Shown here: one piece after another, positions 1 through 46,100 of the stretch
Numbering within the stretch: position 1 is the first letter of the stretch
How the letters are laid out: each line of letters starts with the position of its first letter
From: a virus
IMG/VR virus record: IMGVR_UViG_3300045988_011398
Reading direction: 5' to 3' (one strand)
DNA length: 64,000 nucleotides
The notes under the pieces: generated by a model
What the model was told of the DNA's origin: nothing
What the model saw: the letters and a program-made list of their open reading frames with translations, nothing else
The model's database searches: none
Program-made: the position numbers and the translations under genes

Positions 1-100
1 ATAACTGATTCCTTTGATATTATAAGAGATAAATCTGATATAATATTCATTACCAAAATAAATCCTGATAAGCAAATGTAAGTTTAACAAAAAAAAAAGC

Positions 101-1633
101 ATGAAAGAAGCAATTTTATTAACTGATGGTTACAAGTTGGACCATAGGAGACAGTATCCTGAAGGCACTGAGTATGTGTACTCAAATTGGACACCAAGGA
201 GCTGTGCATACTTTCCTGAGGCTGAAGAAGGAGCTGTGGTATTTGGCATCCAATACTTCATTAAGGAGTATCTGATAAGGCAATTCCAAGAGAACTTCTT
301 CAATCTTCCTAAGGATGTGGCAGTCAAATCTTTCAAGAGGAGAATTGACACATTCTTGGGTGAAGGCAATCAAGTAGGCACAAAGCACATTGAGGAGCTA
401 CATGATTTAGGTTATTTACCTATTAGAATAAAGGCTCTTCCTGAAGGCACATTATGTCCTATCAGAGTACCAGCACTCACATTCATCAACACCCATCCTG
501 ATTTCTTCTGGCTTACTAACTACTTTGAGACTCTTATCTCTACAACTCTATGGTTGCCTATGACAAGTGCAACTACTGCAAGGTTGTATAAGAAGGAGTT
601 GATAAGACATGCAAGAAAGACTGGATTCAAGGATGTAGACCTTAACTTCCTTATACATGACTTCTCTATGAGAGGCATGGCTGGAGTGGAAGCTGCCATT
701 ATGTCAGGTATGGGTCATATGACTTCATTCTGTGGCAGTGAGACTATTCCTGCTATTGGTGCATTGGAGGAATACTACAATGCCAATGCAGAAAGAGAGC
801 TTATTGCAGCTACAATTCCAGCAACAGAGCACAGTGTCATGTGTGCAGGAGGTAAGGAAGATGAATTGGAGACATTCAGAAGACTCATTACTAAGGTATA
901 TCCTACTGGATTTGTATCTATTGTATCTGACACATGGGATTTCTGGAAGGTAATGACAGAATATCTGCCTAAGTTGAAGGATGAAATCCTTGCAAGGGAT
1001 GGTAGATTAGTCATAAGACCTGACAGTGGAGACCCAGTACACATCATTGCAGGATACAAGTATGAGGATTTTGAGACTTGGCAGGAGCAGACAGAGGTAC
1101 AGAACAGAATGAGTAGCACTGCTGAGTGGGTAGGTGCTTATCAAGTTCTGTGGGACATCTTTGGTGGTACTGTCAATGAGAAAGGTTACAAAGTACTCAA
1201 TCCCAAGGTAGGTATCATCTATGGTGATTCCATTACTCTTGAGAGACAGAAGGAAATCTACAAGAGACTTGAAGAAAGAGGATTTGCAGCTACTAATCTT
1301 GTACTTGGTGTAGGCTCATATACATATCAGTATAAGAGCAGGGATTCTCTTGGCTTTGCTATGAAGGCTACTTGGTGTCAGGTTAATGGAGAGGGAAGAG
1401 AAATCTTCAAAGACCCTAAAACTGATAGTGGCACTAAGAAATCTTTGAAGGGGCTAATCAGTGTGGAACTCATGTCTGATGGCACTTACAAGGCTATTGA
1501 CCAAGTAACTCCTCAGCAGGAACAACTGGGTAATCTGGAGACAGTCTTTGAGGATGGCAAACTTCTCAAAGATTGGAGTTTAAGGGATATAAGAAAGAGT
1601 GTAGATGAAAGCATTTTGTCATCCCTTCAATGA
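101..1633 (+). CDS. Nicotinamide phosphoribosyltransferase (NAMPT/NadV) family enzyme; candidate Namat of a NARP1-type pathway
   Basis: 510-aa ORF. N-terminus ILLTDGYKLDHRRQYP matches the NAMPT-family TDSYK..H..QYP signature, and the length is typical of type II PRTases. A-rich leader before the ATG. Confidence 0.85.
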   Translation: MKEAILLTDGYKLDHRRQYPEGTEYVYSNWTPRSCAYFPEAEEGAVVFGIQYFIKEYLIRQFQENFFNLPKDVAVKSFKRRIDTFLGEGNQVGTKHIEELHDLGYLPIRIKALPEGTLCPIRVPALTFINTHPDFFWLTNYFETLISTTLWLPMTSATTARLYKKELIRHARKTGFKDVDLNFLIHDFSMRGMAGVEAAIMSGMGHMTSFCGSETIPAIGALEEYYNANAERELIAATIPATEHSVMCAGGKEDELETFRRLITKVYPTGFVSIVSDTWDFWKVMTEYLPKLKDEILARDGRLVIRPDSGDPVHIIAGYKYEDFETWQEQTEVQNRMSSTAEWVGAYQVLWDIFGGTVNEKGYKVLNPKVGIIYGDSITLERQKEIYKRLEERGFAATNLVLGVGSYTYQYKSRDSLGFAMKATWCQVNGEGREIFKDPKTDSGTKKSLKGLISVELMSDGTYKAIDQVTPQQEQLGNLETVFEDGKLLKDWSLRDIRKSVDESILSSLQ

Positions 1634-2021
1634 TGAAAGGTGTGCTCGCAGGTTATTATGGGAATATCAACATTATGACCACCTTATTGTGGGAATTGAT
1701 TTTGATAATACCATTAAACCTGTGAAGCCTGACAGTTCATGTGAGCCAGTATTGGAGCTATTGAGAAGGTGTTCTAAAGACCCTAAGATAATCTTGTGCC
1801 TCTGGACTATATGCCCAAGAGGAGAAGAGCAGGAGAAGCTTGACTATTGCAAGTCTCAAGGCATCAAGATTGACTATGTGAATGAATCTCCATTTCTAAT
1901 AGGAGAGTGGAAAGGAAAGAAGCAATTCTTTAATGTTCTTCTTGATGATAGAGCAGGCTTGGAAAGTGCTTATAACAACTTAAAATATGTATTAGACAAT
2001 GCAAATACTGAATCTGATTAG
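1605..2021 (+). CDS. Small HAD-superfamily phosphatase, NT5C-like 5'-nucleotidase
   Basis: HAD motif I DxDxT (GIDFDNT, nt 1698-1712) and a C-terminal LLDDR motif resembling NT5C-type deoxyribonucleotidases. Overlaps both neighbours (29 nt and 23 nt). Confidence 0.5.
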   Translation: MKAFCHPFNDERCARRLLWEYQHYDHLIVGIDFDNTIKPVKPDSSCEPVLELLRRCSKDPKIILCLWTICPRGEEQEKLDYCKSQGIKIDYVNESPFLIGEWKGKKQFFNVLLDDRAGLESAYNNLKYVLDNANTESD

Positions 2022-2799
2022 ACCAGAGGACAGTGACATCAAGTATGAGGTTATTCAGTTTCCTGATGGTGAACCTCATATTGTCTTGAAGAGTATCAAC
2101 AGGAAAGATGATGTCACAGTGGTATGTAGGATAGCAAATCCTACAGACTTGTTTATTCTTATGCAGGTGGGTGACATTCTGAATAGACAGGGAATCCTGT
2201 TTGGTTTGGATATTGTCTATCTCATGAGTATGAGAATGGACAGGGTGATAAGCTATGATGAATCCTATTCTCTCAGTGTAGTATCACAGGTAATCAATGA
2301 CATGTTCCCTCAAGCAGTTCATGTACTTGAGCCTCATTCACATAAGGTGCAAGACCTTATAGATGAGTATTGGGGAGATATTAAGCCTCCCATGCCTGAT
2401 TTTGATGGGTATCTTAGAGTATATCCTGATAAAGGAGCTATGCAGAGATATGATGGGAGTGCATCCACTGAGGTACTTTGTAGTAAGGTCAGAGATACTG
2501 AGACTGGCAAATTGTCTGGTTTCAAGATTGAGAATCCTGAAATCTTGGAGGAGTTTGACAAGCCACTTGTAGTAATTGATGACCTTTGTGATGGAGGAGG
2601 TACATTTGCAGGTATTGCCAAAGAACTGAGAAAGGTTGCACCTGACAGAAAATTGTGTATCTATGTAACTCATATGGTCAATCCTAAAGGCATTGTTACC
2701 TTGAGTGAGAATTATGATGAGGTGTACTTCACTAATTCTTACAAGGATTGGGATAATGAGGTACTTCCATCCAATGTAAAAGTAATTAAAGTGGTATGA
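1999..2799 (+). CDS. Ribose-phosphate pyrophosphokinase (Prs) family enzyme; candidate Adps of a NARP1-type pathway
   Basis: N-terminal FPDGE motif and PRPP/PRTase loop VVIDDLCDGGGT (about nt 2568-2603), both typical of Prs-family enzymes. 266 aa. Confidence 0.8.
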   Translation: MQILNLIRPEDSDIKYEVIQFPDGEPHIVLKSINRKDDVTVVCRIANPTDLFILMQVGDILNRQGILFGLDIVYLMSMRMDRVISYDESYSLSVVSQVINDMFPQAVHVLEPHSHKVQDLIDEYWGDIKPPMPDFDGYLRVYPDKGAMQRYDGSASTEVLCSKVRDTETGKLSGFKIENPEILEEFDKPLVVIDDLCDGGGTFAGIAKELRKVAPDRKLCIYVTHMVNPKGIVTLSENYDEVYFTNSYKDWDNEVLPSNVKVIKVV

Positions 2800-2996
2800 A
2801 AACAAGTACAATAAGTAAGCTGGTGGTATGGGTTATCTTATTTATAATCCTACTTAATGTAGGATTTAGTATGATAACAATGCCCAATACAATAGGAAAT
2901 GTGATTGGGTTTCTTATTGTAGTAGCTATAGTGGTTATTTCAATCAAAACAAAGTGTTTAACATCAATTAAATTACAAAGAAAACATGAAAAGTAA
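2796..2996 (+). CDS. Small two-TM membrane protein
   Basis: 66 aa with two hydrophobic helices. ATGA overlap with the upstream gene. Confidence 0.45.
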   Translation: MKTSTISKLVVWVILFIILLNVGFSMITMPNTIGNVIGFLIVVAIVVISIKTKCLTSIKLQRKHEK

Positions 2997-3822
2997 GTTT
3001 ATTACAGGACTTCTGTTCACCTTTATGGTGATGACAAGTATGATGTTCACCTCTTGTGGTTATGAGAGGGTGGATGCTGGTTATGAGGGTATCAAAGTGA
3101 ACCTTTATGGTGATGACAAGGGAGTGGATGACATTACTCTTGTCACTGGTGCAGTATGGTATAATCCTATTACTACTGCTGTGTATGAGTATCCTACATT
3201 TGTACAGACTGTGGACTATGCTCCCTTCAGTATCAATGCCAAAGATGGTAGCTCATTTACAGTAGACCCTACTATCTCCTTGAAGATTGTGGATGGTAAA
3301 TCTGCTGAGGTATTCAAGAAGTATAGGAAAGAGGATATTACCGAGGTTATCAATACAACTCTATACAACTATGTAAGGAATGCTTTCAGAATCCAGTTGA
3401 ATAATTACACTACTGATGAACTGGTAAGCAAGAGAGAAGAGTTTGAGAAAGCCATTGAGGAAAGATTGTCTAAGGAGTTGCTTGCTGAGAATTTTCAATT
3501 GGAGCAAATGACTTCAGGTCTGCAATATCCTCAGACTCTTGTAAATGCTATTGATGCAAAGAATGCAGCAGTTCAAGAAGCTCAGAAAGCACAGAATGAG
3601 GTATTGAAGATTAAGGCAGAAGCTGAGAAGAAGATTGCAGCAGCAGATGGTGAAGCACAGGCTTTGAAAATCAAGGGTGATGCAGAAGCAGAGTATAATA
3701 GAAAGATTGCTGCATCCTTATCTCCTTTGATTGTACAGCAAATGATGCTTGACAAGTGGGATGGTAAATTGCCTGTATATGGCACAGTGCCTACATTATT
3801 CAAAGATATAGCAGGTAAATAG
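2986..3822 (+). CDS. SPFH/band-7 (prohibitin/stomatin-like) lipoprotein
   Basis: N-terminal signal with lipobox-like FTSC. SPFH-like core followed by an Ala/Glu/Lys-rich coiled coil (AQKAQNEVLKIKAEAEKKIAAADGEAQALKIKGDAEAEY), typical of band-7 proteins. Confidence 0.7.
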   Translation: MKSKFITGLLFTFMVMTSMMFTSCGYERVDAGYEGIKVNLYGDDKGVDDITLVTGAVWYNPITTAVYEYPTFVQTVDYAPFSINAKDGSSFTVDPTISLKIVDGKSAEVFKKYRKEDITEVINTTLYNYVRNAFRIQLNNYTTDELVSKREEFEKAIEERLSKELLAENFQLEQMTSGLQYPQTLVNAIDAKNAAVQEAQKAQNEVLKIKAEAEKKIAAADGEAQALKIKGDAEAEYNRKIAASLSPLIVQQMMLDKWDGKLPVYGTVPTLFKDIAGK

Positions 3823-3823
3823 T

Positions 3824-4162
3824 ATGTGGTGGATTATTATAGCTATCATATTTATTCTCACTACTGTCTGTGTACTCAAAGATACTCATGTCAAAGTATA
3901 TGATGGTGGCTACTATGCTAAATTACAAGAGGAGTATGACCTCAAGTTACCTATATGGGCATTACTGCTCATAATACTTGTGTGTCTTATCCCTATTGTA
4001 AACATTATAGCATTTGTAGCTTTCCTTGTTTTCTACATTGTACATGCAGTATGGGACCCCAGAGAATGTGATGGTGAGACTCATGTGTTCTCATTAAATG
4101 GGAATAACTGGGTAACTAAAAGCCTGTTGGCAATAAAAGAAATATTAAACAAGAAGATATGA
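3824..4162 (+). CDS. Membrane protein (about 3 TM), holin-like candidate
   Basis: 112 aa with three hydrophobic segments. Sits immediately upstream of, and ATGA-coupled to, a muramidase-type gene. Confidence 0.4.
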   Translation: MWWIIIAIIFILTTVCVLKDTHVKVYDGGYYAKLQEEYDLKLPIWALLLIILVCLIPIVNIIAFVAFLVFYIVHAVWDPRECDGETHVFSLNGNNWVTKSLLAIKEILNKKI

Positions 4163-4671
4163 AACAAAGAGTATTCAATGTACTCATTTCTCTTGCAGTA
4201 TTAGGTCTGGGGGCTATAGTGCTCTCAGACCACTACAAGGGAGATGACCCACCTCAATATGAGGTGGTGGATGTCAAATTAGTGCAACCAGAGTTTCTGT
4301 TATCAGAAAATCCTGAGGAGGACTTAATTGCTGTAATGAACTATTATGGGGTAAAACACCCTGAAATAGTCTATGCACAAGCAATTCTTGAGACAGGACA
4401 CTTTAGGTCAAAGGTATATAGGGAGTGTAACAATTTGTTCGGTCTGTATAATAGCAGGACTGAAAGCTACTATAAATTTGACCACTGGTCAGAGAGTGTG
4501 GTTGCCTATCTTGACTTCATACAGGACAGATATAAACCTCCGAATGATTATTACAAGTTTTTATCAGATATAGGGTATGCAGAAGACCCTGAGTACATTA
4601 ACAAGTTGAAAAGAATAGTAAATCAATATGACAAAAGAAGAACTACAGATACAGTCTTTATCATTGATTAA
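4159..4671 (+). CDS. Membrane-anchored N-acetylglucosaminidase-domain peptidoglycan hydrolase (candidate endolysin)
   Basis: N-terminal TM/signal anchor (VFNVLISLAVLGLGAIVL). Core AQAILETGHFRS...NNLFG matches the mannosyl-glycoprotein endo-beta-N-acetylglucosaminidase (LytD/FlgJ-type) signature. Confidence 0.7.
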   Translation: MKQRVFNVLISLAVLGLGAIVLSDHYKGDDPPQYEVVDVKLVQPEFLLSENPEEDLIAVMNYYGVKHPEIVYAQAILETGHFRSKVYRECNNLFGLYNSRTESYYKFDHWSESVVAYLDFIQDRYKPPNDYYKFLSDIGYAEDPEYINKLKRIVNQYDKRRTTDTVFIID

Positions 4672-5860
4672 GCGAAGCAATAGAGTTGCATTACAATGGT
4701 GTACAGGATTGGGTAAGAGCAAAATGGCTATTGATATGGCTAATTATCTGGCAGATAAAGAATTTGAGGAGTATGAAGAACCCCTCAATGTGTTATTGGT
4801 AGTTGCAGAAACTGCACATAAGTCCAATTGGAAGATAGAGTTTGATAGGTGGGGATTAAGGACAGACAATGTGGTAATGGAGTGCTATGCTTCATTGAAG
4901 AAGTATAGGAACAGTTATTGGGATTTGGTTATCTTTGATGAAGCCCACCATCTTGGCTCTGATTTGAGGATGGATGTGCTCACTGAACTTCATGCCCAAA
5001 ACATAATTCTGCTATCTGCTACTCTTCCTGACCAAGTAATGCAGGCTGTAACTGGAGTTTTTGGGGAATTTGTTACTTCAAAGGTTACTCTCAAACAGGC
5101 TATTGAGTGGGGAATATTACCAGCTCCCAAAGTTTATCTTATTCCATTGACTCTTGATAGTACATACCCTAATTGTACAATCATAGAGGAGTGGGGTAAG
5201 AAGGAAAAGAGAGTCACTCACAAGTGCAAGTTCCATGAAAGATGGGAGTACTTGAAGAATAAGAACAAGTACCCTAATGTGACACTGGAAATTTCCTGTA
5301 CACAACAACAGAAGTATGATTATCTATCTGACCAATTTGAGTATTGGAGAAGTCAATTCTTTAGAACCAGACAGGAGTTCATCAAGAACAAATGGCTTCA
5401 GGTTGGTTCAAAGAGAAAGAGATTCCTTGGAGAGTCAAAGACAGATGCAGTAAGGCTGTTACTACACAAGATTCAAGATAAGAGGTTTATCTGTTTCTGC
5501 ACAAGTATAGAACAGGCTGAGTTGCTTGGTGGTAAGAATGCAATCCATTCAAAGAAAGACAACTCTTTGGACATCATAGATGACTTCAATACTAAGAGGA
5601 TAGATAATCTATTTGCTGTTGGAATGTTGCAGGAAGGACAGAATCTCACTGATATTGAGGCTGGTGTGATTGTACAACTTGATGGTCAGGAGAGAGCATT
5701 TGTACAGAAGTTTGGGCGTAGCCTAAGGGCTACTGACCCTATTCAGTTCATATTCTATTACAAGGATACAAGAGATACAGAATATCTGGAAAATGTTCTT
5801 GAAGGAATCAATGAGGAGTACATAACTGAAGTTGATAACTTAATAGATTTAGAGCTATGA
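4628..5860 (+). CDS. SNF2/DEAH-type superfamily 2 helicase
   Basis: Motif I CTGLGKSK, motif II FDEAHH, motif III LSATL, motif VI QKFGRSLR. Confidence 0.8.
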   Translation: MTKEELQIQSLSLIKRSNRVALQWCTGLGKSKMAIDMANYLADKEFEEYEEPLNVLLVVAETAHKSNWKIEFDRWGLRTDNVVMECYASLKKYRNSYWDLVIFDEAHHLGSDLRMDVLTELHAQNIILLSATLPDQVMQAVTGVFGEFVTSKVTLKQAIEWGILPAPKVYLIPLTLDSTYPNCTIIEEWGKKEKRVTHKCKFHERWEYLKNKNKYPNVTLEISCTQQQKYDYLSDQFEYWRSQFFRTRQEFIKNKWLQVGSKRKRFLGESKTDAVRLLLHKIQDKRFICFCTSIEQAELLGGKNAIHSKKDNSLDIIDDFNTKRIDNLFAVGMLQEGQNLTDIEAGVIVQLDGQERAFVQKFGRSLRATDPIQFIFYYKDTRDTEYLENVLEGINEEYITEVDNLIDLEL

Positions 5861-26586: not shown

Positions 26587-27046
26587 GATAATTTTGTGTA
26601 GAGGAATACAAGGTAGTGGTAAGACTACTTGGGCTAAACAATGGGTGCTTGAAGACCCTGAACATAGAGTAAGATTCAATAATGATGACATCAGAAATAT
26701 GCTTGGTAAGTATTGGGTTCCCAGTAGAGAAGGTCTTGTAAAAGACTTAAAGGATTTATTCTTGTGGAAAGCTATGTCTTATAGATTTGATATTGTTATT
26801 GACAATATGAATCTTAATCCAAAGGAGTTGGAGTACTATGAAAGAGTACTTAATGATTGGAATAATGCTAATGAATATGCTCCCACTGTGATAGGACCTA
26901 AGTATGAATTGGAAATTAAGGATTTCTTCATACCTCTTCAAGACTGTATTGAGAGAGATTCCAAAAGACCTAACCCCATAGGAGAGGAAGTTATTAAGGC
27001 TACTTATGAAAAGTACAAATCCATCTTGGAAGGAGGTGAAAAATGA
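26579..27046 (+). CDS. P-loop kinase, T4 polynucleotide kinase (Pnk) kinase-domain-like
   Basis: ILCRGIQGSGKTTWA P-loop and NNDDIR, resembling the Pnk/AAA_33 Asp-Arg motif. 155 aa with no phosphatase domain. Confidence 0.55.
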   Translation: MPKIILCRGIQGSGKTTWAKQWVLEDPEHRVRFNNDDIRNMLGKYWVPSREGLVKDLKDLFLWKAMSYRFDIVIDNMNLNPKELEYYERVLNDWNNANEYAPTVIGPKYELEIKDFFIPLQDCIERDSKRPNPIGEEVIKATYEKYKSILEGGEK

Positions 27047-39030: not shown

Positions 39031-42000
39031 ATGGCAAGAAATTGTGCAATTATCCCTCAAGTAAGAAACAATAAAGGTCAGGTAGTAGACAGCAAGCTCT
39101 TTAAGGGCTTGCTTGCCTACACTGGCAATAATAGGTCAGAAGCTACCAGACTTTATTTGATTACTAAGAGTAGTGAGTTTATTAAGAATTGGAATCCAAG
39201 GCTAACTCTTGATGAAAACAATGAACCTACATTGAGAAGTCTTCTACAAAAGACCAATCTTAGTGATGTTATTCCTGAGTCAAAAGTACTTGAAAGACTC
39301 AATAGGGAAATAGGGTACTATAAGAGGGGAATGGATAGACCTGCTCTTTGGGTAAATAATGATGAGAACTATCAGAAGTTACTACAGAAGGCAATCTCAT
39401 TCAATCAAACCTCAGATTTCAGGGATGACTATGTAGCTAAGATTATTAAGATTCAGGACACTGAATCTCCAAGAATCTTCATAGGAGTAAAGGTTGAGAA
39501 GAGAAACAGGCTTAACTCAATTGATGCTGACAAAATGGCATATAATGCCAATCTTAATAGTAGATTAAGAGACATTTTGGCAGCTAATGGCATTGCAATA
39601 GGTGCTCTTACAGACCTTGAGAAGAGAATGGGAATCAATGGTGTAACTGACTTTGATGTGGCAAGAACTGCTGCTAATGGAATGATTGAGATGATTAGAT
39701 TGGCTAATGGTATTGAAGGAGAAAAAGCTCTTCCTGAAGAGTTTGCCCACTTTGCTATTGAGGCAATGGGAGAGTCCCCCCTTATCAATAGATTGATTAA
39801 TAATCTCAGTTCAAGTGGTCTTATAGGTGAAATACTTGGTGATGAGTATGAGACCTACAATACTCTCTACAAAGGTGATACTGCAAAGTTAGCTAAAGAA
39901 GCAGCAGGTAAATTACTTGCAAAGCACTTATTGAAGTCAGAGCCTATAGGACAGAAACCCTACAAGAATTTATTAGAGAGAGTAATCTCAGCTATTAAAT
40001 CCTTCTTCAAGACAATGAATGCCAACCAGATACAAAAGGCTATGTATGAAGTAGACAAAGACTTTGGCAGGCTGGCAAGAGATATTCTCAATGGTAGAAT
40101 GGATGAAGAGATAAATGTGGGGAACATTAATTCCTCTGGCTTATTCTATCAGACCAATGAAAGAGTTCAAAGGGATAGAAGGCTATTGCAGGACATCATG
40201 AATAATGAGTTGAAGAGGCTCAAGATTTATGAGAAGAGAAATCCTAATAGCCAATTCAGTGCCAACCAAAGACTTCTTATTGACAGGCTTGAGCTTGAAT
40301 TAGCTGACAATAATGAAGTTGAGGGAATCTATGCTTTCCTTGATAATGCTCTTGAAGAATTACAGAAGGTAAGCAGTAGGCTTGAGGTGCTAAGAAACAC
40401 TCCAGCCACTAATGCAAATGAAAGGGCTTCTGTATTGAGAGATGTGAGAAATTACATGTACTCATATAAGAATATCATTGAGGATATAAGAAAGGCATTG
40501 GTAGATGAGGAAAGATACACTGATAATAGATATGGTCAGAGAGTCAGAGTAGCATTGGATAATGCTTCTATTTTGATTGGAGACCTATTTGTTAAGTACA
40601 ATGATGTTTCTATGCCTCTATTTGTGGACTTCATTAAGCCATTTGTAGGAGAAAATATCATGATACCTTTTGGTAAGTTCAAGGGTAAAGTGATTAAGGC
40701 TGAGGATTTAGTGAAGATGGCTGATGAGGATATTTCCTTCTTTGACAGATGGCTTGATAGTATGGCAGATTCTTCTGACTATATGTTGAAAGTAATGGAC
40801 CAAGCTGTCAAGAAGAGTAAGGAACAGGCAAGATTGAGGACTATTGATGTAATGAAACAATTACAGGCTGCCACTATTAAACTTGAAAAGGCTGGTATTA
40901 AGAATACTGACTGGATGTTTGAGAGGGACAGCAAGGGTAATTTAAGTGGTAATTACATCTCTGAAATCAATCAAGCCTTGTTCAAGGAGAAAGTAAGGGA
41001 AATGTTCAAATCTCTTAATGAGAAGTATGGAAAGAACCCTGTTGGTGAAAATGCTGAGAAGTATAAGAAAGAAAGACAGGCTTGGTTTGATGCCAATATG
41101 GAAATAGTCAATGGTAAGAAAGTACCTAAGATGTCAATCTATGGTAATAAGCAATACCAAAGACTGAATGCAGCTCAGAAAGAGTATTATGATACAGTGA
41201 TGAACATTAAGTCCCAGTTGGATTCTTATTTGCCTGAGAAGTACACTACACTTACTAATGCTGTCAAGATAAGAAAGGACTTGCTTGAGAGGGTCAAGTC
41301 ATCTGATGGTGTGAGGTCAGGGGCAAAGCAGATATGGGAAAGTATCAAGGATGAGTTTATTAGAAGGACTGATGATGTGGACTTTGGAGACAGAGCCACA
41401 GTGAAGGACTTTGAAGGCAATGAGGTACAGACTCTTCCTATATACTTTACTAAACTGAAAGAGGGAGAAAGTGCAAATGACCTGTCTACTGACATTGTAA
41501 GTACTCTCACAGCCTATGCTGCAATGGCTAATGACTTTGATGAAATGAACAAGGTTATTGATGTGCTTGAGTTAGGCAGAGACTTACTAAGAGAAAGGCA
41601 AGTAATTCAAACTCAAGGAGGTAAGCCACTTGTAGAGAAGTTTAAGGCAGTAGGTAGAAAGGTTGAGAGTAAATTAACAAAAGAAGGAGAAGCTACAAGA
41701 TTTGTCCAAAGACTGAATGACTTCTTTGAAATGCAAGTATATGGAAGATACATGGCAGATGAAGGTACATTTGGTAAGACAAATATTGATAAGGGTAAAG
41801 TCGCTAACTTTGTAAATAGAGTTACTTCTATGAACAACTTAGCACTCAATGTTCTTTCAGGTATTTCCAATATAGCTACTGGTAAAGTGATGATGAGAAT
41901 TGAGTCATTTGCTGGTGAGTTCTTCAATGAGAAGAATACAATTACTGCTGATAGGATATATGGTCAATCTCTTCCTGCATATCTTGCTGAAATAGGTAAT

Positions 42001-43068
42001 AGAGTAAAGACAAGTAAACTTGCTCTATGGGATGAATTGTTCAATGTGATGCAAGAGTATGAGCAGGATGTCAGAGAAGTGAACTTTGATAGGAAGACTT
42101 GGTTCAGTAGAATGTTTGGCGCATCTACATTATTCTTTATGAACAATGCGGGTGAACATTGGATGCAGAACAGAACCTCTTTAGCCTTAGCTGATGCCTA
42201 TAAGATGAAAGCACCTAATGGTAAGATTGTCAGTCTATGGGATGCTATGGAAGTAGTTCCTATTGATAAGAATAATAAGAAAGCTGGTGCTAAACTTCAA
42301 TTGAAGCAAGGTTATACAAAGGCTGATGGCTCTGCATTTACACAGGATGACATTATCAAGTTCAGTAGAAGAAGTGCAGCAATCAATCAGAGAATGCACG
42401 GTATTTACAATAAGGCTGATAGGTCAGCAGTACAAAGATTGGCTATTGGTAGAATGGGTATGATGTTCAGAAAATGGATTAAACCATCTCTGAATAGAAG
42501 ATTCAAGTCAGCTACTTATAACTATGATTTGGATGCTTGGACTGAAGGTTATTATAGAACAAGTGGTAGATTCCTGTTACAACTTGCAAGAGATTTGAGA
42601 GAAACTCAATTTAATCTTGCTGCAAGGTGGAAAGAGCTTACCCCTACTGAGAAGGCTAACATAAGAAGAGCATTGACTGAGACAGGTCACTTCTTGGCAG
42701 TAATGGCTATTATTGGTCTCATTGAGTGGTCTGATGATAAGGATAGACCTTGGTTAGTGAGGATGGCTGAATATCAAGCAAGAAGATTGTACACTGAATT
42801 AGGTGCTATGATACCCGGCAAACCTATGATTTCAGAAGGTTTGAAGATTATCAAATCACCTGCTGCTGGTGTGAATACAATTGAGAATATGCTTGATTTA
42901 ACTAAACTGCTTAATCCTTGGAACTACATGGATGAATTACAGTCTGGTAGATATGAAGGACACAGTACTGCATACAAGTCATTCTTTGAATCTCCTATAA
43001 TTCCTATGAACAGGACTATTTATAGAGGATTGCATCCTGAGACTGGTATTCCATTCTTCAAGCAATAA
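39031..43068 (+). CDS. Large virion/ejected protein of the RNAP gene block
   Basis: 1345-aa ORF directly following the RNAP gene. Coiled-coil rich, with a hydrophobic helix near the C-terminus. No catalytic motif recognised. Confidence 0.45.
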   Translation: MARNCAIIPQVRNNKGQVVDSKLFKGLLAYTGNNRSEATRLYLITKSSEFIKNWNPRLTLDENNEPTLRSLLQKTNLSDVIPESKVLERLNREIGYYKRGMDRPALWVNNDENYQKLLQKAISFNQTSDFRDDYVAKIIKIQDTESPRIFIGVKVEKRNRLNSIDADKMAYNANLNSRLRDILAANGIAIGALTDLEKRMGINGVTDFDVARTAANGMIEMIRLANGIEGEKALPEEFAHFAIEAMGESPLINRLINNLSSSGLIGEILGDEYETYNTLYKGDTAKLAKEAAGKLLAKHLLKSEPIGQKPYKNLLERVISAIKSFFKTMNANQIQKAMYEVDKDFGRLARDILNGRMDEEINVGNINSSGLFYQTNERVQRDRRLLQDIMNNELKRLKIYEKRNPNSQFSANQRLLIDRLELELADNNEVEGIYAFLDNALEELQKVSSRLEVLRNTPATNANERASVLRDVRNYMYSYKNIIEDIRKALVDEERYTDNRYGQRVRVALDNASILIGDLFVKYNDVSMPLFVDFIKPFVGENIMIPFGKFKGKVIKAEDLVKMADEDISFFDRWLDSMADSSDYMLKVMDQAVKKSKEQARLRTIDVMKQLQAATIKLEKAGIKNTDWMFERDSKGNLSGNYISEINQALFKEKVREMFKSLNEKYGKNPVGENAEKYKKERQAWFDANMEIVNGKKVPKMSIYGNKQYQRLNAAQKEYYDTVMNIKSQLDSYLPEKYTTLTNAVKIRKDLLERVKSSDGVRSGAKQIWESIKDEFIRRTDDVDFGDRATVKDFEGNEVQTLPIYFTKLKEGESANDLSTDIVSTLTAYAAMANDFDEMNKVIDVLELGRDLLRERQVIQTQGGKPLVEKFKAVGRKVESKLTKEGEATRFVQRLNDFFEMQVYGRYMADEGTFGKTNIDKGKVANFVNRVTSMNNLALNVLSGISNIATGKVMMRIESFAGEFFNEKNTITADRIYGQSLPAYLAEIGNRVKTSKLALWDELFNVMQEYEQDVREVNFDRKTWFSRMFGASTLFFMNNAGEHWMQNRTSLALADAYKMKAPNGKIVSLWDAMEVVPIDKNNKKAGAKLQLKQGYTKADGSAFTQDDIIKFSRRSAAINQRMHGIYNKADRSAVQRLAIGRMGMMFRKWIKPSLNRRFKSATYNYDLDAWTEGYYRTSGRFLLQLARDLRETQFNLAARWKELTPTEKANIRRALTETGHFLAVMAIIGLIEWSDDKDRPWLVRMAEYQARRLYTELGAMIPGKPMISEGLKIIKSPAAGVNTIENMLDLTKLLNPWNYMDELQSGRYEGHSTAYKSFFESPIIPMNRTIYRGLHPETGIPFFKQ

Positions 43069-43076
43069 GATAAGGA

Positions 43077-43120
43077 TAAAAAGAAAGGGAAGTAGATTAA
43101 GTTCTACTTCCCTTTTTCTT
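43077..43120. terminator. Bidirectional rho-independent terminator between convergent blocks
   Basis: Stem gggaagtaga (43087-43096) pairs with tctacttccc (43103-43112). An A-run lies on the left and a T-run on the right. Confidence 0.8.
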
Positions 43121-43150
43121 TCTCCTTTATAAAAAATTTCACCCTACTGA

Positions 43151-46100
43151 TTAAAGAGCTATACATTTAACTGCTTGGTCTCTCTCTTGTTGTGAGACTG
43201 CATCAAACTTCTCTTGTGTCCATCCCTTATTCAATAGGGATTCTTGTATCTCAGCATCTAATGACTCAAATGATGTAGTATCTTGCTTTTTTGATTCTCT
43301 CATTTGACTTAGTGAAGGTACTTTATAATTACTTGATGAGTACTTTCCTTCATTGATATTTCTGTAATAATCAATCAAGTGGGGTCTCATGTTATTCCAA
43401 TTAGTAACCTTAGCAAATAAGTCTTTGAAGAAATCAAGAATCTTTCTACCAATACCTCTATTCCCTCTGGTCATTACATACTCTCTGAATCCTTCTGCCA
43501 TATCCTCTTCAAGAGAGGCATCATCTTTATTACCATACATTTCCTTAGCCTCAGCCAATAATGCTTGTCTCTCATTATTGTCAAGAAGAAGTTGAAATAC
43601 TGCATGGAAGGCTTCATGGTAAGTAGTACCCTCAGCAGCTATATCAGATAAAGTAATTATGCCATTATTGAATTGTCCCCAAGCCAATGCTCCTTGATTT
43701 CCAACTCTAATAAGACCCTTTATTACTCTTACCCTATCATTATCAGATAATTGAGGAAGGACTTTCTTTATCCAAGCAAGTTCCTTTTCTTGATTCCAAG
43801 TACCTCTTGTCTCATCATCTACCCTTCTCAAACTACCCAAATCCAAGTCATCCTCAAATTCATCATCATTCTCATTTACTGCTTGTTCTGCTTGTGCAGC
43901 CTTAGCTGCCCCAGACTCAGTAGGAGTAGATAATATAGTGGCAGGAGTCTCAGTTTTAGGTGCTTCTACTACAGGAGCAGATGAAGGGTCAAATATGAGA
44001 GTCTTCTCATTTGACATATCTACCACTCTTTGAGGATTACCATTAAGCATCTTCTTGATAGTATCCTTAGCCTGCTGCTCAGTCATGGTCATTGGGTCAT
44101 TCTTGATAAGAGTAATTGAATTACCATTAGGGAATACTGCCATGTATGAATTACTTGCAACATGGGCTTCTTCACCTTGTCTACCAAATCCCTTAGTTAT
44201 AGTAGGTATCTTAGCCATATACACCTCAACACCATTCACTTTACCAATAGGAGTTAGATAACTCTTGTGTAATTTACCATCTCTTACAAAATAACCTACC
44301 TTACTATCTTCAAGACTATATTCAGGAAGCACATCATTAACAGGGTCTTGTGTTTCAAGAGCACTATTAAAGACTGGTACTGTTGAGTTAGTAGGAGTAG
44401 GTTCACTTGCCTTTACAGCACCTACTAATGGTACATTAACAGCAGGATTATAGGTTATCATTATACCCTTCTCCTTTGTTACTCCATCAACAACATCCTT
44501 ATTATAGTTAAGAACAAATGGTAGAACAGCAAGTGTAGTGATAGGAGTATGATATTGAGACTCAAACAGATTCTTATATGCAGACAATTGTAGAGTATAG
44601 TAATCCTTAGCACTCATTCTTTGAGTAGCTGAAGGGCTGGTGAAGTAATTCACTCTATGACCATATCTGTCTGTGAAATCATAGAAGCTATATCTGCTTG
44701 TCTTTACATCATATATCCTGAAGTTTCCATCTGCATCTACTGAAAGAATATCAACCTCACCTGCAACTCTTGTCCCATCAGCATACTTCTGGAATAGTAC
44801 AATGTTATTGGTTAGGAATCTTTCACCTCTTGCCTCAATGTTAGACCTGATTTCTGTAAGTGAGGCAATCAAATCTGTGAAAGCTTTCTCACTCATATTA
44901 TCAGGCTTTACAGGAGTATCATTTGATGTAAAGAAGTTTCTAATCACACTATCCACAGCAGTACCAGCATTTAAGGCTCTTTGTGAGTTAGTGCCAGACA
45001 TACTGTCTCTTATGATGTTTACAATAGTATCTCTACTTCTTGCATCAATCTTACCACTGAATGCACTTAAATCAACCTTCCAATGATTACCTAAGTACTT
45101 CAAGTAGTTATTGTACTGAGTAACATTATCTGCCAATTGAGACAATCTTACTCTTATATCTTTAAGAGCATCAGTTTGCTTCTTTGATTCAATCCAATTA
45201 CTTCCTAATCTGCTGTGTACTCTTTCATACTTATGGTACTGACCATCTTCCTCAAGTATATAATAGAACTCACCATCAGTTCTTGTCTTATCTACTTTCT
45301 TCTGATTCTCAGCTATCTGAGCTATGACTTTCTTACTGTCTCCTACAGTTCTTTCTCTACCAGCAATCTTATCCTTAACCTCTTGAGCTTCTTTACCTGT
45401 CAAGTATTTCTGAGTTCCTCTATCCAATACCTGACCACTTGGTAACAGGATTTTATTATTCCATATCAAAGAACCATTAGTAGCATCACCAAAGTTAGCA
45501 CTTGCCCAAGCTAAATCACTGATTAACTGAGCATTCTTAGGATATACCCTTTGATTGTTACTACCATATATAACACCAGTAGTCAAATCTACTCCATAAG
45601 TAGCACCATCAACAACTACCTTAGTACCTGTAATAACACCCTCAGTCCCACCTACAGGAGTTTCTATCTTCCTTGTAGTATCTGGAGTTACAGATGCAGG
45701 GTTTATAGCCTGATGTAAATTACCTTCCACATCAAAGTAGTCAGTAGTAAACCAGCTACTTATCACTCTTGCATCAGAGATATTTGATGTAAGTACATTA
45801 GAATTGATAAGTACATTGTTATATCCACCTCTATTCAACATACCAAGATTCACCTGAATAGGTAGATTGAAGTCAAGAAGGATTTCACTTATCTCCTTTG
45901 ATACATCCTCAATACTCTTTGAGGCAGGCTCTGTTTGTACCTCTTCATTTCCTGTAATAGAGAATAGAGTGTTTTGGTCCCACTTCTCAGTTAAGAATAC
46001 TGTCTTTACAGTCTCCTTTCTTATTCTCTTGCCATCTTTCTCCTCATATATCTCATTACCTTGAGCATCTCTTTGCACCTTAGTAAATCTAATACCATTA

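Follow-up and report, generated by a model that had tools for sequence, protein, structure and literature searches.

In the genome of a crAss-like Bacteroides phage, a small phosphatase of the HAD superfamily is encoded between the genes for Namat and Adps, the two enzymes of the NARP1 pathway of NAD+ reconstitution. The locus lies in a stretch of 64,000 nucleotides from IMG/VR record IMGVR_UViG_3300045988_011398 (hereafter the window, to which positions refer unless another locus is named). Few bacterial anti-phage strategies are commoner than NAD+ depletion, which phages counter mainly by NARP1, a pathway composed of Adps and Namat (Osterman et al. 2024, bioRxiv 10.1101/2024.02.11.579819). 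By homology to characterised enzymes, Adps would convert ADP-ribose (ADPR) and ATP to ADPR pyrophosphate (ADPR-PP), from which Namat would form NAD+ with nicotinamide, the two together reversing NAD+ cleavage by TIR, SIR2 and SEFIR-type defences. Bacteria can evade NARP1 through aRES, which splits NAD+ into nicotinamide and ADPR-1''-phosphate, a product that NARP1 cannot use, and some phages respond with the Macro-domain phosphatase Adpp, which restores ADPR and is present in 15% of NARP1 operons, termed 'NARP1-AP' (Osterman et al. 2026, bioRxiv 10.64898/2026.01.28.702374). The best explanation of the window, to which we give a probability of about 0.5, is a three-gene cassette in which the HAD enzyme stands in for Adpp: it would remove the phosphate from a phospho-ADPR unusable by NARP1 and so yield ADPR, the best candidate substrate being the ADPR-1''-phosphate that aRES and other RES-domain NAD+ phosphorylases make, and would thus be a non-homologous replacement for the Macro phosphatase. 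The embedded HAD gene is an undescribed yet widespread NARP1 accessory and most likely represents a second, non-homologous form of NARP1-AP; we found no description of a HAD-type NARP1 accessory in the literature covered, which did not extend to subscription-only papers.

The phage belongs to the Crassvirales (Steigviridae, Asinivirinae), the closest DNA matches of the window being uncultured phage cr85_1 (Kahnovirus; 84.5% over Namat) and the B. thetaiotaomicron phages DAC15 and DAC17. The first gene of the cassette (Table 1) encodes a NAMPT-like protein that matches Pfam NAPRTase (1.5e-38) and NAMPT_N (4.6e-10), phrog_448 (1e-201) and NCBIfam PRK09198 (4e-170). In a phmmer search of the PDB it aligned over its full length, at 540 bits (E 5e-161), with 9W5X/9W5W, solved for SPbetaL1 Namat by Lan et al. 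(PMC12774641), compared with approximately 226 bits for human and other NAMPTs. The catalytic His (HDFSMRG) and the equivalent of R306 (VIRPDS) are kept, and the aromatics F392/Y396 of the SPbetaL1 selectivity-clamp helix are represented by Tyr/Tyr (GSYTYQY). R40 of the clamp loop is Ala here and is not conserved, in a loop that the authors of the structures called variable (PMC12774641). The cr85_1 Namat carries the label 'Adps-associated' in Table S2 of Osterman et al. 2024, and on such features we assign the protein to the Namat clade.

The Prs-like product of the third gene matches phrog_619, 'ribose-phosphate pyrophosphokinase', at 2e-51 and falls far below the cut-off of every NCBIfam Prs model. 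The initial annotation, prepared from the letters and open reading frames (ORFs) of the window, had proposed aligning this protein against bona fide Prs and Adps; it sides with Adps, for by blastp it reaches 56–104 bits with phage Adps-clade proteins (Osterman et al. 2024, Table S1) but only 29.6 bits with E. coli Prs, and it shares with the Adps clade the motifs EPHS, K.RD..TG and DDLCDGGxTF, where Prs has DLHA, DKRRP and DDMIDTGGT. Most Adps and Prs proteins read PY(A/S)R(Q/M)DR where the crAss-type Adps has YLMSMRMDR. The protein is 76% identical to MT774390_00114 of cr85_1 and 50% to MT074136_00099 of DAC15, both tabulated as 'Namat within 10 genes: Yes' (Osterman et al. 2024, Table S1), and we assign it to the Adps clade, a placement made by blastp scores and shared motifs. 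The dN/dS estimate for Adps was unreliable, probably through indel misalignment, and was not used. NARP1 as such is already catalogued for this lineage, with cr85_1 and DAC15 in the Osterman tables, and it is highly probable that the outer gene pair of the window is a NARP1 pair, as the initial annotation had supposed; both clade assignments and the presence of the nearest relatives in the published NARP1 tables speak for it.

Between these genes lies an ORF of 138 codons that is a real gene, since it has 72 homologues in a set of 5.8 billion proteins, its start (MKAFCHPFN) agrees with the N-termini of those homologues, and its pN/pS is low. Over the part that does not overlap its neighbours, compared with relatives at 82% nucleotide identity, pN is 0.048 and pS 0.71, which indicates strong purifying selection. 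All four HAD motifs are present: D32-F-D34-N-T36 (motif I), T69 (II), K106 (III) and D114-D115-R (IV). Their conservation was judged in family alignments of 26 and 18 sequences and in an alignment to BT0820. Across 26 homologues D32-F-D34-N-T36, K106 and L-D114-D115-R-A-G-L-E-S are invariant and position 69 is Thr or Ser, and an N-terminal helix carries invariant H6, F8 and R16; when the alignment is widened by Bacillus, Lak, Phass-1, Tenacibaculum and other members, F33, D34, T36, N93, D114, D115 and G118 stay invariant. Motif I reads DFDNT in 88 of 127 family ORFs, DYDNT in 29, DFDDT in two and DFDHT in one, leaving DxDxT intact in about 120 of the 127, and the member from Tenacibaculum PTm1 is the only one with EFDDT. 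Judged by its residues, then, the protein lacks none of the catalytic features expected of a Mg-dependent HAD phosphomonoesterase.

The AF2 model (pLDDT 87.4, pTM 0.82) consists of alternating strands and helices with no cap insertion. Top Foldseek matches in the PDB were all HAD proteins (trehalose-6-phosphate phosphatase, 2OBB, YhjK, KdsC and Pnkp1), at TM-scores of only about 0.4, and among viral models 'HAD-like' proteins were matched at 0.73–0.80. The best PDB match of the family profile was 2OBB (BT_0820; E 1.2e-3); a PDB search with the single sequence returned only noise (designed repeat proteins and a cytidylyltransferase). The protein has no Pfam match at E<=0.1, PF06941 included; it matches the NCBIfam BT0820 HAD model NF046079 at 1.7e-4 (21.9 bits, below the cut-off of 165) and phrog_1238 at 6e-11, whose label 'phosphoheptose isomerase', also used in RefSeq, looks like a misnomer. 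Motifs and model together identify a predicted capless HAD-fold phosphatase with BT0820 as its nearest family. The HAD phosphatase that the initial annotation placed between the two genes is therefore upheld by four motifs and HAD-only fold matches, but its label 'NT5C-like' has to be dropped, there being neither a match to PF06941 or another Pfam model nor a cap domain, and the nearest type being the capless BT0820. The window was also checked for a further HAD paralogue, which gp044 of cr85_1 had suggested, and holds none: positions 26675–26959 match only the non-HAD C-terminal part of that protein. The gp044 gene itself (locus L177, 17703–18224; L numbers are our handles for loci and P numbers for proteins) encodes 173 aa, lies near DNA polymerase I and is annotated 'phosphoheptose isomerase/polynucleotide kinase'; its N-terminal half is close to BT0820 (MIIAVDFDGT...), and cr85_1 is itself without a NARP1-embedded HAD gene.

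The initial annotation considered the embedded HAD gene unusual, a description that does not survive comparison, the arrangement being a widely conserved three-gene cassette and not peculiar to this phage. A tblastn search with the HAD protein identified 85 INPHARED phage records, comprising 54 Bacillus phages (Bastillevirinae), 15 Prevotella Lak megaphages, several crAss-like phages, Tenacibaculum phage, Phass-1 and one phage each of Aeromonas and Vibrio, and of 1.84 billion cluster representatives 1273 were matched by a family profile at E<=1e-3. When one genome was scanned for each of 185,579 prokaryotic species only four matches were obtained, all on contigs of metagenome-assembled genomes with the order Namat>HAD>Adps; at this stringency the family is phage-restricted. 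The HAD profile retrieved 80 IMG/VR loci; in 57 of them NARP1 genes lie no more than 5 kb away, and 52 of the 57 show Namat>HAD>Adps (for other orders see Table 1). Adps and/or Namat also adjoin four of six distant, unfused representatives sampled at random across the profile-search list, one of the four lying in the five-gene cassette described below, and one sampled member has a DUF4326 neighbour. Fusions of HAD to Namat or to Adps were looked for across the family ORFs and none was seen. Contexts beyond the core cassette are likewise centred on NAD and ADPR, with NUDIX/NADAR, SIR2 and DUF4326 neighbours. That the protein is an active phosphatase functionally tied to NARP1 we consider very probable.

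Two variant cassettes were observed among these loci. In L181/L182 (1283–4985) five genes are arranged as NUDIX>Namat>NADAR>HAD>Adps, placing three ADP-ribose-related accessory genes in one NARP1 operon. In L006 (893–4408; Phage Phass-1) an isochorismatase-family gene, annotated as a nicotinamidase, lies 5' of Prs>NAMPT>HAD, an order that, in this code-15 phage, hints at a nicotinate-based variant of the pathway.

The case for equivalence with Adpp comes from the slot that the HAD gene occupies. A further 80 IMG/VR loci were retrieved with the window Adps and scanned with hidden Markov models (HMMs) for HAD, Adps and Adpp-type Macro, the last built from five published NARP1-AP Adpp sequences. 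The HAD gene was found in 31 of these loci and a Macro ORF in 16 (E 1e-28 to 1e-31; for one of them Pfam Macro is a further match, at 1.2e-8), Namat abuts Adps directly in about 13, and HAD and Macro occur together in none of the 80; nor did the Macro HMM match the window or any of the 80 HAD loci. Namat and Adps flank the Macro gene immediately, and its ends overlap theirs (L130, Table 1). When HAD-bearing locus L051 is compared with L130, nucleotide identity is 91% in Namat and 71% in Adps, and only in the middle segments (384 and 475 nt) is there no relationship, a clean in-situ swap of the middle gene. A neighbour-joining tree was built from 105 unique Adps sequences; in it, HAD cassettes occur throughout the clade, Macro cassettes form one group nested among them, and the closest relatives of the window show scattered losses of the middle gene. 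As a separate observation, positions 1956–4010 of L133 form one 685-aa open frame in which Namat is fused in frame to an Adpp-like Macro domain.

The distribution of the two phosphatases is also complementary. Macro genes in Table S1 of bioRxiv 10.64898/2026.01.28.702374 come only from phages of Vibrio, Pseudomonas, Acinetobacter and Pseudoalteromonas, with no Bacillus or Bacteroides phage among them, and aRES proteins are catalogued in Bacteroidetes (B. thetaiotaomicron included) and in Prevotella, Tenacibaculum and Bacillus cereus, which are host groups of the HAD-carrying phages. The role of the HAD gene, left open by the initial annotation, is less so than stated there, given that a Macro phosphatase extends published NARP1 operons and that HAD and Macro alternate in one slot. 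ADPR-1''-phosphate has perhaps an even chance of being that substrate, and it may equally well be true or false that this phage-restricted capless HAD family represents an independent, non-homologous solution to the task of Adpp, that is, the conversion of phospho-ADPR to ADPR.

Several points weigh against a HAD enzyme in the role of Adpp. Whereas gene identity, motif integrity, selection, conserved linkage and the alternation of HAD and Macro in one slot are observed, the substrate and the role against aRES are what we infer from positional replacement and complementary distribution, and a slot shared with Macro does not prove a shared function. The exchange of HAD for Macro is a single event in the Adps tree, where the Macro clade is monophyletic, and it could reflect a general slot for accessory genes and not equivalence; NARP1 operons take other inserts too, for example the RyDEP glycosidase in a mycobacteriophage operon. 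The overlap with aRES holds at the level of host groups. Similarity to solved HAD structures is weak (TM approximately 0.4, E approximately 1e-3), so that substrate specificity is not transferable from them. Members of the family also occur outside NARP1, in 20 IMG/VR loci of one lineage, in megaphage LR756503 and on short contigs with YopX, and some are fused to nucleoside 2-deoxyribosyltransferase-like domains, which point to nucleotide substrates. Finally, the gene is easily lost in close relatives (cr85_1, L098–L106) and is thus dispensable for NARP1.

The same linkage of HAD to NARP1 would be expected of an enzyme that feeds the pathway from another phosphorylated NAD derivative, such as 2'-phospho-ADPR (from NADases cleaving NADP+), NADP+, or the hydrolysis products of ADPR-1'',2''-cyclic phosphate (ADPR-cP), a compound formed by spontaneous decay of ADPR-PP and also by Tpt1 or sirtuin-type removal of RNA 2'-phosphates. 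ADPR-cP has been observed as an Adps by-product, the HAD gene is close to a phage sirtuin in L058, sirtuin-linked HADs have been proposed to process RNA ends or ADPr>P (Iyer et al. 2022), and the NADAR and NUDIX genes that accompany HAD suggest that ADPR derivatives are funnelled more broadly. We nevertheless regard this alternative as unlikely, though worth keeping in mind: the in-situ Macro replacement resembles Adpp, whose activity was demonstrated on ADPR-1''-phosphate, and no known defence has been shown to make these other substrates in quantity.

Substrates unrelated to ADPR are more doubtful still. The enzyme might be a nucleotide 5'/3'-phosphatase acting on nicotinamide mononucleotide (NMN), deoxynucleoside monophosphates or a signalling mononucleotide (N6-methyl-dAMP, m6dAMP), and so mimic MisB (Metis) or adjust nucleotide pools. 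Fusions of family members to DUF4406 and Nuc_deoxyri_tr2 (nucleoside deoxyribosyltransferase-like) would suit such a role, as would viral Foldseek matches labelled 5'-nucleotidase, acid phosphatase and PNKP phosphatase; MisB is a HAD phosphatase that destroys m6dAMP, NAD+ depletion by Metis is not repairable by NARP1, and NMN is formed from phosphoribosyl pyrophosphate (PRPP) in a side reaction of Namat. However, the protein matches neither NT5C, PF13419 nor any other Pfam nucleotidase model, and capless HADs usually act on large substrates. Nor would mononucleotide hydrolysis explain why the gene is so tightly and repeatedly placed between Namat and Adps, or why an Adpp-like Macro gene replaces it.

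The outer pair itself could be read as ordinary nicotinamide salvage, in which Prs makes PRPP, NAMPT makes NMN and an NMNAT of the host, or an unseen one of the phage, finishes the synthesis (NARP2-like), the HAD being an unrelated passenger such as an end-healing phosphatase like T4 Pnkp. Namat enzymes retain PRPP-dependent NMN synthesis, approximately 33 kb of the genome of approximately 97 kb lie beyond the window, and some annotators name HAD homologues 'polynucleotide kinase'. Yet the Adps and Namat genes, one gene apart, fall in their respective clades; Osterman et al. class the relatives as 'Adps-associated', not Nmnat-associated; and linkage of HAD to NARP1 recurs in unrelated phage families. 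The NMNAT signature motif G.[FY].P.H.GH is absent from the six-frame ORFs of the window, in agreement with the initial annotation, which saw no NMNAT there, and the annotation of the complete cr85_1 genome likewise names no NMNAT, NadD or NadR; many genes of the window phage are hypothetical. We consider salvage very improbable. Two further pathways were rejected: NARP2 (NAMPT and NMNAT), the NAMPT homologue being of Namat type, paired with Adps, with no NMNAT motif in the window, and NARP3 (a PnuC-like transporter and a NadR-like enzyme), whose components are not at this locus. It is similarly hard to believe that the HAD hydrolyses inorganic pyrophosphate (PPi) or clears a dead-end product, pulling ADPR-PP and nicotinamide towards NAD+ and PPi as a kinetic helper and not a substrate converter, for although the HAD family reportedly includes an inorganic pyrophosphatase (BT2127) and the gene overlaps suggest translational linkage to both enzymes, pyrophosphatase is already abundant in hosts, known HADs would enclose small substrates with a cap that this protein lacks, the substituting Macro domains are not pyrophosphatases, and NARP1 works without HAD in many phages.

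The ORF listing bears out the three-gene layout and both overlaps given in the initial annotation, with three co-directional ORFs on the plus strand in three different frames (Table 1). Namat and HAD ends likewise overlap in DAC15, cr126_1 and cr111_1, as do the corresponding ends in the Macro-bearing cassette of L130, and translational coupling of the three genes seems plausible from these overlaps. Downstream (2796–4671), a 4-nt ATGA overlap joins the cassette to a gene for a 66-aa membrane protein, after which come an SPFH/Band-7 protein (2986–3822), a second small membrane protein and a glucosaminidase-domain protein (4159–4671); the SPFH neighbour also adjoins the cassette in cr126_1. The signs of GC skew and AT skew flip at about 43 kb (window positions ~42000–44000), as would fit a change-over between gene blocks transcribed in opposite directions, a typical feature of crAss-like genomes.

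Table 1. Coordinates of the cassette in the window and in a Macro-bearing locus, and gene orders in other phages
Sequence	Feature or gene order	Position	Strand	Description
Window	Namat (NAMPT-family nicotinamide ADP-ribose transferase)	101..1633	+	510 aa; second NARP1 enzyme
Window	Capless (C0) HAD-superfamily phosphatase	1605..2021	+	138 aa, with GIDFDNTI ... LLDDR; predicted NARP1 accessory gene
Window	Adps (Prs-family ADP-ribose pyrophosphokinase)	1999..2799	+	266 aa; first NARP1 enzyme
Window	Overlap, Namat 3' end and HAD 5' end	1605..1633	+	29 nt
Window	Overlap, HAD 3' end and Adps 5' end	1999..2021	+	23 nt
L130	Namat	1957..3519
L130	Macro	3498..4010
L130	Adps	3998..4807
cr126_1, cr111_1, DAC15	Namat>HAD>Adps			Overlapping ends
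Bacillus phage Kida	Adps>Namat>HAD
Phass-1	isochorismatase/nicotinamidase>Prs>NAMPT>HAD
Lak-B5	HAD>Adps
Tenacibaculum PTm1	HAD>Namat

Reduced, rearranged and NARP1-free loci were also recorded. L096 (IMGVR_UViG_3300045988_004437, 1–4700) is 97.5% identical to the window from position 2104 on and is without Namat and HAD; residues 35–266 of its Adps are fused to an unrelated N-terminus of 69 aa (ORF 3797–4699), making it a natural deletion or recombination variant of the cassette. Comparison of the related crAss-like contigs L107 with L117 and L121 with L122 reveals precise loss of Namat (~1.7 kb) or of Namat and HAD (~2.5 kb), leaving an orphan Adps, and in 20 of the 80 Adps loci Namat is missing from the surrounding 4 kb. 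In L095 (2850–5617), L129, L139–L142, L145, L148 and L001 (4352–5872), Namat is broken up into two or three ORFs that lie 0.2–1.2 kb apart, and in cr85_1 it is annotated as two coding sequences; the inserts could be introns, homing-endonuclease insertions or frameshifts. The lineage represented by L058 (2278–7004) and approximately 19 similar loci (L050–L078), on phage contigs of 150–215 kb, was inspected for NARP1 within 5 kb of HAD and has no NARP1 gene over that distance; HAD lies there near a reverse transcriptase, a SIR2-family gene (Pfam 1e-55; two genes away), two radical-SAM genes and a SprT-like gene. In proteins P0076, P0133 and P0148, encoded on short phage contigs without NARP1, HAD is fused to a DUF4406, Nuc_deoxyri_tr2 or GIY-YIG nuclease domain.

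Were the HAD enzyme indeed a stand-in for Adpp, the layer of the arms race in which bacteria evade NARP1 through ADPR-1''-phosphate and phages answer with a phosphatase would have been solved at least twice, and the solution would extend to dominant human gut phages (crAss-like and Lak) and to Bacillus phages, which are without the Macro solution. A second type of 'NARP1-AP' would then be carried by crAss-like phages, Lak megaphages and Bacillus herelleviruses, and RES-type NAD+ phosphorylase defences, or an undiscovered NAD+-depleting defence that makes another phospho-ADPR, would matter in Bacteroidota and Bacillus. A family now mislabelled 'phosphoheptose isomerase' in PHROG and RefSeq would gain a name and a testable function, and the HAD gene would serve as a practical marker predicting which gut phages can overcome RES-type defences.

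Among known proteins, the BT0820 family (NF046079, 2OBB) is the closest to the window phosphatase, with which it shares a small size (approximately 140 aa), the motifs DFDxT, LW(S/T), K and DDR, and a Rossmannoid core without a cap. The phage family differs in an extra N-terminal helix with a near-invariant Arg-Leu, and with His6 and Phe8 in the gut-phage clade; BT0820 is itself without an assigned substrate, and the window protein reaches only 21.9 bits against its 165-bit cut-off. The 3'-phosphatase of T4 Pnkp and other capless HADs of phages share DxDxT ... DDR, with Pnkp1 and PNKP-phosphatase as weak fold matches, but the window protein has no kinase domain, is only weakly similar and belongs to a context of NAD reconstitution instead of RNA repair.

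As a system, the locus resembles NARP1 in combining Adps-clade Prs and Namat-clade NAMPT homologues in one co-directional cluster of a lytic phage, with no NMNAT motif in the 64 kb of the window, and differs in its order, which starts with Namat and ends with Adps, and in the third gene embedded with overlapping ends. An embedded accessory enzyme is also a feature of the NARP1 operon of mycobacteriophage DyoEdafos, where RyDEP turns a non-canonical NAD-derived molecule into linear ADPR that is then used by Adps and Namat (bioRxiv 10.64898/2026.05.28.727677); RyDEP, however, is no phosphatase but a glycosidase whose substrates are 2'cADPR and 3'cADPR, and its fold is unrelated. The nearest counterpart is NARP1-AP, of which the operon tested was Adps-Adpp-Namat from Vibrio phage Gary (bioRxiv 10.64898/2026.01.28.702374). 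Both are three-gene operons with a small phosphatase between the core enzymes, and an Adpp-like Macro gene fills the same slot in a sister clade of gut phages. Adpp, a Poa1p homologue, is a Macro domain (PF14519, PF01661 or PF20016), whereas the window phosphatase has a HAD fold without homology to it, and the host ranges are complementary, HAD occurring in phages of Bacteroidota and Bacillus and the published Macro genes in phages of Vibrio, Pseudomonas and Acinetobacter.

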